Notes under the pieces: generated by a model
The model's input: only the letters and a program-made list of their open reading frames with translations
The model's database searches: none
Told to the model about the DNA's origin: nothing
Shown: piece after piece, positions 96-350 of the stretch
Layout: every line of letters begins with the position of its first letter
How positions within the stretch are numbered: position 1 is the first letter of the stretch
Source: Escherichia coli
Lineage (GTDB): Bacteria > Pseudomonadota > Gammaproteobacteria > Enterobacterales > Enterobacteriaceae
Strand: one strand, 5' to 3'
Assembly: GCF_003334355.1 (NCBI RefSeq)
Contig: NZ_QOWP01000109.1
DNA: 396 nucleotides
Position numbers and translations under genes: made by a program

Positions 96-248
96 CTACT
101 TCTTCGGTTCGTAAGCGAGAACAGCCTTAAACTCAATATTACGTTCCTTCACCGTAAACTCACACAGCGAGTCTCCGACCAGAAGCGTAAATCCCAGCAC
201 CGTTAAACACAGCACTATGACTGCCGCAAGGGCATATTTCGTCAGCAT
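96..248 (-). CDS. hokE: Hok/Gef family type I toxin, a small membrane-depolarising peptide, 50 aa: [50 protein letters not shown]
   Basis: Minus-strand ATG at 248..246 and TAG stop at 98..96 (complement of plus cta). The translation has the Hok family hallmarks: a hydrophobic transmembrane N-terminal half, the conserved SLCE motif and a C-terminal ...AYE... tail. It is near-identical to the E. coli HokE sequence as I recall it. GGAGG lies 10 nt upstream. The IS186 end 21 bp downstream matches the known K-12 hokE arrangement. This is the C-terminal 50 codons of the 95-aa track ORF. Confidence 0.9.
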
Positions 249-288
249 GTTTATATTGCCTCCATGCGAAGAAGGGACTACCATCCAA
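160..288 (-). CDS. Putative mok-like (modulator of killing) overlapping reading frame; start codon unresolved. The frame is open from 345 to the TGA at 162..160; TTG at 288..286 is the hok-proximal candidate start.
   Basis: This minus-strand frame puts a CAT codon at 249..247, one nucleotide 5' of the hokE ATG. That is the same register as mok relative to hok in plasmid R1 as I recall it (GGC CAU G). It stays open for 62 codons and terminates inside hokE, as mok does. No ATG or GTG is present in frame and no Shine-Dalgarno precedes either TTG, so whether it is translated here is uncertain. Confidence 0.25.
256..284 (+). promoter_or_regulatory. Candidate sigma70 promoter for the Sok antisense RNA: -35 TTGCCT (256..261), 17-bp spacer, -10 TACCAT (279..284)
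   Basis: Seen directly on the plus strand. The -35 matches TTGACA at 4 of 6 positions and the -10 matches TATAAT at 4 of 6, including positions 1, 2 and 6, with optimal 17-bp spacing. The -35 overlaps the complement of the hokE Shine-Dalgarno (cctcc 259..263), the arrangement expected for a sok promoter. Confidence 0.35.
259..263 (-). promoter_or_regulatory. Shine-Dalgarno sequence (GGAGG) for hokE
   Basis: Minus-strand GGAGG at 263..259, followed by a 10-nt spacer (CAATATAAAC) and the hokE ATG at 248. The spacing is at the long end of the functional range, in keeping with Hok translation being inefficient and regulated. Confidence 0.6.
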
Positions 289-291
289 ATT

Positions 292-350
292 GTTCGGGTT
301 TGGAGTGGCAGCCCCAGGGTGTACTGACCCCAAAAAGTTGGACAGTTAAA
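292..350 (+). ncRNA. sokE: Sok-type antisense RNA (antitoxin of the hok/sok type I system), antisense to the hokE mRNA leader; boundaries approximate.
   Basis: In hok/sok systems a roughly 60-nt antisense RNA is transcribed opposite the hok leader from a promoter overlapping the hok translation initiation region. A sigma70-like promoter on the plus strand (-35 TTGCCT 256..261, 17-bp spacer, -10 TACCAT 279..284) predicts a start near 291..293. This agrees with my recollection of the annotated E. coli K-12 sokE position relative to hokE. No canonical stem plus U-tract terminator is visible at the 3' end, so the 3' boundary is the least certain part. Confidence 0.4.

Follow-up and report, generated by a model that had tools for sequence, protein, structure and literature searches.

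The hokE/sokE locus between IS150 and IS186 in Escherichia coli is most probably a disarmed remnant of a chromosomal hok/sok module

Does a stretch of E. coli DNA that carries an intact Hok-type toxin gene and a promoter facing away from it hold a working type I toxin-antitoxin module, or what insertion sequences have left of one? Chromosomal hok loci were reportedly first described by Pedersen and Gerdes in 1999. We analysed it for a stretch of 396 nucleotides (hereafter the window) that an earlier note had read as hokE with antisense sokE on positions 96 to 350. We find that native hok/sok DNA is confined to positions 75 to 319 of the window and that all the rest consists of insertion-sequence ends, so that the chromosomal hokE/sokE locus very probably persists here in a doubly disrupted state, as a disarmed remnant between IS150 and IS186. 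The features on which this reading is built are the following, with the evidence for each in brackets.

Positions 1 to 74, minus strand: end of IS186/IS421 with the terminal inverted repeat CATAAGCGCTAACTTAAGGGTTG reading from 74 downward (identical to the K-12 IS186 end).
Positions 75 to 84, minus strand: one copy of the 10-bp target-site duplication of IS186, GGAGTAATCC (in K-12 and strain 300709, IS186 has these 10 bp on either side).
Positions 75 to 95, minus strand: 21-nt remnant of the hokE 3' UTR, in which the native hairpin is reduced to its 5' arm, with T at position 88 (comparison with K-12 and O157/ST131; folding).
Positions 96 to 248, minus strand: 153-nt coding sequence of hokE with 50 codons and a TAG stop codon (open reading frame; Pfam; identity to K-12; annotated hokE in strain 300709 and K-12).
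Positions 249 to 319, minus strand: last 71 nt, still present, of the hokE mRNA leader, whose full length is 147 nt (K-12 alignment; Rfam alignments of intact loci).
Positions 256 to 284, plus strand: candidate sokE promoter with the -35 box TTGCCT (256 to 261), a 17-nt spacer and the -10 box TACCAT (279 to 284) (sequence; position of K-12 sokE).
Positions 259 to 263, minus strand: hokE Shine-Dalgarno sequence GGAGG, 10 nt before the ATG (read from the sequence).
Positions 292 to 319, plus strand: first 28 nt of sokE, made up of the unpaired 5' tail and of one arm, the 5' one, of the Sok hairpin (mapping of K-12 sokE; folding).
Positions 317 to 319, no strand assigned: one copy of the 3-bp target-site duplication of IS150, CCC on the hok strand (both junctions in strain 300709).
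Positions 320 to 396, minus strand: right end of IS150, its last 77 nt, in the same orientation as hokE (100% identical to the K-12 IS150 end).
Positions 363 to 396, plus strand: terminator-like 15-bp hairpin inside IS150, followed by TTTAATTT just past the window (terminator search; fold).

The toxin gene is the part of the earlier reading that is fully borne out. Its product is the proposed 50-aa Hok/Gef peptide of the minus strand, with a hydrophobic N-terminal segment, the SLCE motif and an AYE-containing C-terminus, and is identical to HokE of E. coli K-12. The Pfam model HOK_GEF (PF01848) matches it at full length (model positions 1-42 of 42, E 9.2e-8), and two NCBIfam models score below their curated cut-offs (HokA, 47.7 bits vs 89; Hok family, 38.9 bits vs 73). 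Since the hokE locus lies between ybdK and entD in K-12 MG1655, strain 300709 and REL606, this context together with the Pfam match and the identity to K-12 argues that the toxin part is real and no chance open reading frame. By sequence and position, the frame is the hokE orthologue; it belongs to the type I toxin genes of the Hok/Gef family and occupies its usual chromosomal place, and the Shine-Dalgarno sequence that the earlier note had listed is in place as well. Position 46 of Hok is a Cys, or a Tyr that is recoded to Cys via mRNA editing, and is conserved together with Cys14 and Cys29 (PMC12214031). As read from the peptide, HokE has Cys14, Cys29 and Tyr46; the latter is encoded by TAC at 113 to 111 (minus strand), and the region around this codon, folded in search of a TadA-type hairpin, gives a weak structure that is no better than those of shuffled sequences (z -0.87). 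The HokE coding sequence is toxic upon overexpression (bioRxiv 10.1101/2025.08.07.668861).

Megablast against 5426 complete E. coli genomes recovered the full window at 99.7% identity with hokE annotated beneath it, and transposases of IS150 and IS421 are also annotated under the matches. Over positions 1 to 320, 319 of the 320 bases are identical to K-12 MG1655, the sole difference being T instead of G at position 88, outside the coding sequence; every complete genome differs from the window at this position, and an exact copy of the window is found in 0 of them. E. coli B (REL606, BL21) and strain 300709 carry the same order of IS150, hokE and IS186 over the 396 bases with 1 mismatch to the window, and the IS150 copy of REL606 is further interrupted by IS1A, two versions that the window is too short to tell apart. 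While 5366 of the 5426 genomes carry the hokE core (positions 74 to 319), the junction of hokE with IS186 occurs in 1742 and that of sokE with IS150 in at most 553. In a sample of 60 rows spaced evenly over 6746 ranked records, both junctions occur in the top three or four, suggesting that the complete arrangement is present in a few hundred complete genomes.

At the 3' side of the toxin gene, positions 1 to 77 of the window are identical to the end of K-12 IS186. The ATG of the insL transposase lies at 19 to 17, its reading frame running off the window, and in strain 300709 the coding sequence of an IS4-like IS421 (IS186) transposase is annotated across positions 1 to 19 on the hokE strand; K-12 annotates IS186B here. 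The terminal repeat CATAAGCGCTAACTTAAGGGTTG, the duplication of approximately 10 bp and the insL start identify the element as IS186/IS421 of the IS4 family. Its junctions in K-12 and strain 300709 read ...GGAGTAATCC / CATAAGCGC...GCGCTTATG / GGAGTAATCC..., and the uninterrupted site in O157 and ST131 reads GCGGGGAGTAATCCCCGC. The target is GGGGAGTAATCCCC, a site composed of a G-run and a C-run; a consensus target for IS186 was reportedly the subject of work by saiSree et al. in 2001, a paper cited in PMC3446290.

IS186 has inserted 21 nt past the hokE stop codon, within a GGGG-N6-CCCC hairpin. In the IS-free hokE 3' UTR of O157 and ST131, this hairpin (GCGGGGAGUAAUCCCCGC) is followed by ...GGUAAGGCACCUGC... 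and then by a strong terminator hairpin. The intact 3' UTRs continue ...CCCCGCAT...GGTAAGGCACCTGC..., complementary to the mRNA 5' end GGGUGCCU, and GGUAAGGCACCUGC, by its complementarity to GGGUGCCU, is expected to be the fbi element. The position of IS186 inside the first hairpin thus detaches the predicted fbi element and the terminator from hokE. Neither partner of the tac/fbi pairing is found in the window: the mRNA 5' end lies beyond IS150, and the complementary AAGGCACC together with the terminator lies beyond IS186.

On the opposite side, the orfB stop codon TAA of IS150 is found at 348 to 346 and its terminal inverted repeat at approximately 343 to 320 (terminal sequence TGTACTG...). 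In strain 300709, the IS150 transposase is annotated on the hokE strand down to window position 346 as part of a full element of 1443 bp whose junctions read ...TTTCTATCAACCC / TGTACTGC...GGGGTCAGTACA / CCCTGGGGCTGCC... with a 3-bp CCC duplication, and the flanks of this element rejoin exactly to the K-12 sequence. Terminal sequence, 3-bp duplication and orfB 3' end are those of IS150 (IS3 family). The element entered 71 nt before the hokE ATG, where it splits sokE and cuts hokE off from its promoter and the leader portion that aligns with tac/ucb. According to Rfam alignments of intact loci, the hokE mRNA begins at GGGUGCCUGAAGC, 147 nt before the ATG, which here lies beyond IS150; the first 76 nt of the leader and the hokE promoter are found 1.44 kb off, on the far side of the element. 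The leader architecture that the earlier note had considered as expected is therefore absent, with insertion sequences at both window edges and with IS150, from position 320 on, in place of the promoter and the first 76 nt of the leader. Likewise, the proposed module (96 to 350) and Sok region (280 to 360) both run into IS150, sokE ending at 319.

A frame in the mok register had also been proposed, and indeed a 57-aa open reading frame (160 to 333) has the same offset to hok as mok of plasmid R1. However, its listed TTG start (333) is inside IS150, and within native DNA this frame has no ATG or GTG and only a TTG at 288 to 286 without Shine-Dalgarno sequence. GGGGC at 315 to 311 (minus strand) aligns with the position of the mok Shine-Dalgarno in the family model, neither the hok frame nor the R1-type offset frame is interrupted by a stop codon in the hokE leader, and an in-frame ATG is present at 284 to 282. 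In an alignment of the hokE and hokC leaders with all frames translated, hokE shows no canonical start codon where mokC or R1 mok begin; K-12 mokC is annotated in frame with hokC, with an ATG after a GAGG Shine-Dalgarno, and the aligned position of hokE has no start codon.

What remains of the antitoxin gene is its beginning. K-12 sokE is annotated at 607733 to 607792 on the strand opposite hokE, which corresponds to window positions 292 to 351, but only 28 of its 60 nt are left because IS150 begins at 320; the break falls at 319/320, and the other 32 nt are not part of the window but follow on the far side of IS150. In the predicted fold of native sokE (-24.6 kcal/mol, z -2.8), a free 5' tail of 11 nt leads into a long hairpin that is followed by a U-rich end, and window positions 292 to 351 lack this fold (-13.9 kcal/mol, z +0.6). 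The tail is the part with which R1 Sok starts pairing. A complete Sok gene would consist of a promoter, a 5' tail and a hairpin followed by a U-rich tail, of which the window has the promoter and 28 nt. The candidate promoter ends 7 nt before position 292, the mapped 5' end of K-12 sokE, and its -35 box overlaps the hokE Shine-Dalgarno on the opposite strand; a study that applied genomic SELEX to RNA polymerase holoenzyme (PMC3946193) lists this TTGCCT-17-TACCAT motif for the spacer between ybdK and sokE. A simple consensus scan for promoters and terminators reported none in the window, missing the sokE promoter because only 8 of 12 positions match; it found no promoter in the intact K-12 locus either, so that the negative result for the window carries no weight. 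The divergent promoter of the earlier note hence holds up, but the antisense gene that it would serve is cut after 28 nt.

The Rfam model RF01794 ("sok"; gathering score 59 bits), suggested as a check for the antitoxin, gives 24.4 bits in the window (E 0.0014), a sub-threshold match on the hok strand that is flagged as cut off and that places the 5' half of its alignment on an unrelated IS150 hairpin. Intact hokE leaders score 84.4 bits (K-12), 86.2 bits (ST131) and 75.5 and 83.8 bits (two O157 copies). Because in intact loci the model covers the hok-sense strand, from where the hok mRNA begins up to the start codon of hok, it cannot be used to look for an RNA on the strand opposite the leader; the fold that it scores is that of the leader, and this fold is missing from the window. 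With a permissive E-value cut-off, Rfam gave two matches only for the window, sok and caiA, of which the caiA match (E 1.7, 18 bits vs 55.5) was treated as chance.

The organisation of the locus is best seen next to its relatives. K-12 MG1655 hokE/sokE (b4415/b4835) sits at the same place, encodes the identical HokE and has the same IS186 site with its 10-bp duplication, but it is free of IS150 and retains the 147-nt leader, the promoter region and the complete 60-nt sokE. K-12 hokA/sokA/mokA resembles the window in that IS150 splits the leader and leaves the toxin frame intact, with sokA and mokA annotated as pseudogenes; there, however, IS150 lies 32 nt upstream of the ATG (71 nt in the window) in opposite orientation relative to hok, and no IS186 follows downstream. 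K-12 hokC (gef) shares the IS186 insertion at the homologous 3' UTR hairpin (GGGGAGTGATCC / CATAAGC vs GGGGAGTAATCC / CATAAGC in the window) and, unlike the window, keeps its full leader and sokC. To plasmid R1 hok/sok, the window bears likeness in the Hok/Gef toxin and in an antisense promoter just upstream of the hok start on the opposite strand, and the leader fold of intact hokE loci is homologous to that of R1. Yet the R1 locus is complete and active in post-segregational killing, whereas tac/ucb, fbi, terminator and Sok hairpin are missing from the window.

In the R1 cycle, tac/fbi pairing keeps the full-length mRNA closed, and ucb masks the mok Shine-Dalgarno; slow 3' trimming then produces a refolded, translatable mRNA that is captured by Sok, and the duplex is cleaved by RNase III (PMC9841398). 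With the tac/ucb part of the leader, fbi and terminator, and the Sok hairpin all physically absent, such a cycle could presumably no longer run at the window locus, which in turn would be unable to serve in post-segregational killing or as a module that responds to stress. Transcripts of hokE, if made at all, would have to arise by read-through out of IS150, and any RNA from the surviving sokE promoter would be a sokE'-IS150 chimera of about 110 nt. The cell probably tolerates the intact toxin frame because its expression is too low or its translation uncoupled. We infer a loss of function of the hokE/sokE locus, in agreement with literature that regards K-12 hokA, hokC and hokE as inactivated by insertion elements (PMC12214031) and with the pseudogene annotation of K-12 sokA and mokA.

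Two other readings deserve weighing against this disarmed remnant. The one closest to the earlier note, an intact module in which a SokE RNA of about 60 nt across the leader restrains a normally regulated hokE mRNA, can draw on the HokE frame, its Shine-Dalgarno and the sokE promoter, all present, and on the weak Rfam sok match (E 0.0014). The survival of these parts, and of 28 nt of sokE with its tail, also counts against the disrupted-locus reading as such. But sokE is cut at nt 28 by IS150 with loss of the hairpin, the leader is without its first 76 nt and promoter, IS186 has removed the 3' fbi element and terminator, and the Rfam score stays below the gathering score on an alignment that partly consists of IS150 sequence. 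The junctions with IS150 and IS186 and the identities to both elements refute an intact module at the sequence level, and we consider it highly improbable. Of the module as originally claimed, toxin gene, sokE promoter and 28 nt of sokE hold, and the complete Sok, the leader fold and tac/fbi with terminator do not.

Somewhat less remote, though still unlikely, is a module that has retained residual regulation, with hokE read through from IS150 and the toxin repressed by a chimeric sokE'-IS150 RNA. This RNA would start at about 292, end at the hairpin plus T-run at 363 to about 405, retain the 5' recognition tail of Sok and still base-pair with positions 292 to 319 of the hokE leader. The promoter and the 5' 28 nt of sokE are intact, and the terminator-like plus-strand site in IS150 (3363 to 3397 of the strain 300709 locus; 0.1 expected by chance) has a stable hairpin (-36.9 kcal/mol, z -3.3) at which such an RNA could end. 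IS150 is oriented toward hokE, and a search found no terminator-like site on the hok strand between orfB and hokE. In addition, REL606 gives a hokE array signal that exceeds the one of MG1655 about 2- to 4-fold (1.2 and 1.9 in a supplementary table, taken as log2 ratios), and the cells are viable (PMC3446290). Against this, the chimera is a prediction from sequence, and it lacks the Sok hairpin that is part of the functional RNA in R1. The interruption of IS150 by IS1 in REL606 makes read-through from an IS150 promoter doubtful there, and the microarray difference is modest and open to cross-hybridisation among hok genes.

The REL606 signal bears on the disarmed remnant as well. Since REL606 has the arrangement of the window, the raised signal suggests that hokE is not transcriptionally silent; being modest and array-based, the rise fits either lost Sok control or read-through. 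Furthermore, chromosomal hok loci without insertion sequences have been reported not to mediate post-segregational killing (bioRxiv 10.1101/2025.08.07.668861), so that the insertion elements may not be the sole cause of inactivity. The presence of hokE, its inactivation by insertion sequences in laboratory E. coli and the IS150-hokE-IS186 arrangement of E. coli B and many other genomes are already annotated or published, and the significance of our reading goes little beyond correct annotation: a Hok frame with a promoter nearby does not suffice for a working toxin-antitoxin module, and strains with this locus, among them the widely used BL21 and REL606 lineage, should not be credited with an active persistence or stress module on its account.

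The insertion sites themselves show a recurrent pattern. IS150 is found at the homologous position and in the same orientation at hokE and in what is left of an unlinked hok-type leader, located between cysH and cas3; the shared position is TTTCTATCAACC^ (site TATCAACC). IS150 insertions at hokB have reportedly occurred in the long-term evolution experiment, and our literature search found no paper that links hokB and IS150. It is conceivable, if rather improbable, that the Sok-hairpin/ucb part of hok leaders is a hot spot for IS150 and that the resulting sok'-IS150 chimeric RNA of about 110 nt is functional. If so, a decapitated sok promoter would give rise to a chimera ending at the terminator-like hairpin of IS150, which could act on hokE read-through transcripts as a residual antitoxin or regulate the IS150 transposase mRNA by antisense pairing at its 3' end. 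That IS150 and IS186 recur at homologous sites in more than one hok locus is a minor point on target choice by these elements.

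A hok-type leader remnant that is unlinked to hokE lies in the cysH-cas3 intergenic region of E. coli strain 3502 (locus L009, 1640..1960 and 3280..3500), and it carries IS150 at a position homologous, and in an orientation identical, to that of the IS150 in the window (compare window 317..326). Its junctions read ...TTTCTATCAACC/IS150/ACCTGAGGC..., for comparison with ...TTTCTATCAACCC/IS150/CCCTGGGGC... at hokE loci of the window type, and the junction query of this remnant is covered to at least 80% in 868 genomes, a count that includes cross-matches to the hokE junction. The presence of IS150 at a homologous site and in the same orientation in an unlinked leader of this type points to hok leaders as a place of IS150 target preference.

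Many strains have two hokE loci in tandem (e.g., O157, L004 220..875, and the ST131 strain MB1159, L005 2296..4396). The second hokE copy of ST131 carries IS150 at exactly the junction of the window, GTCAGTACA/CCCTGGGGC, and the IS150 element there shows 100% identity over 1443 nt. It may be the same ancestral insertion, transferred between the copies by recombination, or an independent hit. At the hokE locus of E. coli B REL606 (L008 3543..5446), IS1A has inserted into the upstream IS150 copy, and IS186 lies on the other side of the gene, so that the locus forms an IS nest of the order IS150::IS1 - hokE - IS186.

Three smaller features of the window are as follows:
363..396, plus strand: 15-bp inverted repeat in the 3' end of IS150 orfB
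111..113, minus strand: Tyr46 codon TAC of the hokE CDS, within GCUUACGAACC
88, T on the hok strand: single-base variant in the remnant of a 3' UTR hairpin arm

The IS150 repeat is terminator-like because it is followed by TTTAATTT on the strand that enters the element (tail at 3398..3407 of L001, strain 300709), and such a hairpin could shield IS150 against transcription from outside. The Rfam sok model mis-aligns its 5' stem to this same hairpin in the window.

In genomes without IS150, automatic annotation places a "hypothetical protein" of approximately 90 aa on the strand opposite hokE, across the start of the gene and its leader (L003 844..1113, plus strand). This is probably an annotation artefact arising from an open antisense frame, of which a 36-aa piece cut by IS150 is left in the window (217..327, plus strand).

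The T at window 88 replaces the G of K-12, REL606, and 300709 and was found in 0 of 5426 complete genomes, the best matches all being 99.7% identical.

TadA-dependent A-to-I editing of about 40% is reported for hokE mRNA, and Cys46 coded by RNA editing has been described for HokC, HokD, and HokE (PMC12214031; bioRxiv 10.1101/2025.08.07.668861). The hairpin predicted around the Tyr46 codon of the window is weak; the UACG motif is found at this codon in the sequence, and an editing-coded Cys46 would fill out the cysteine pattern of Hok toxins.
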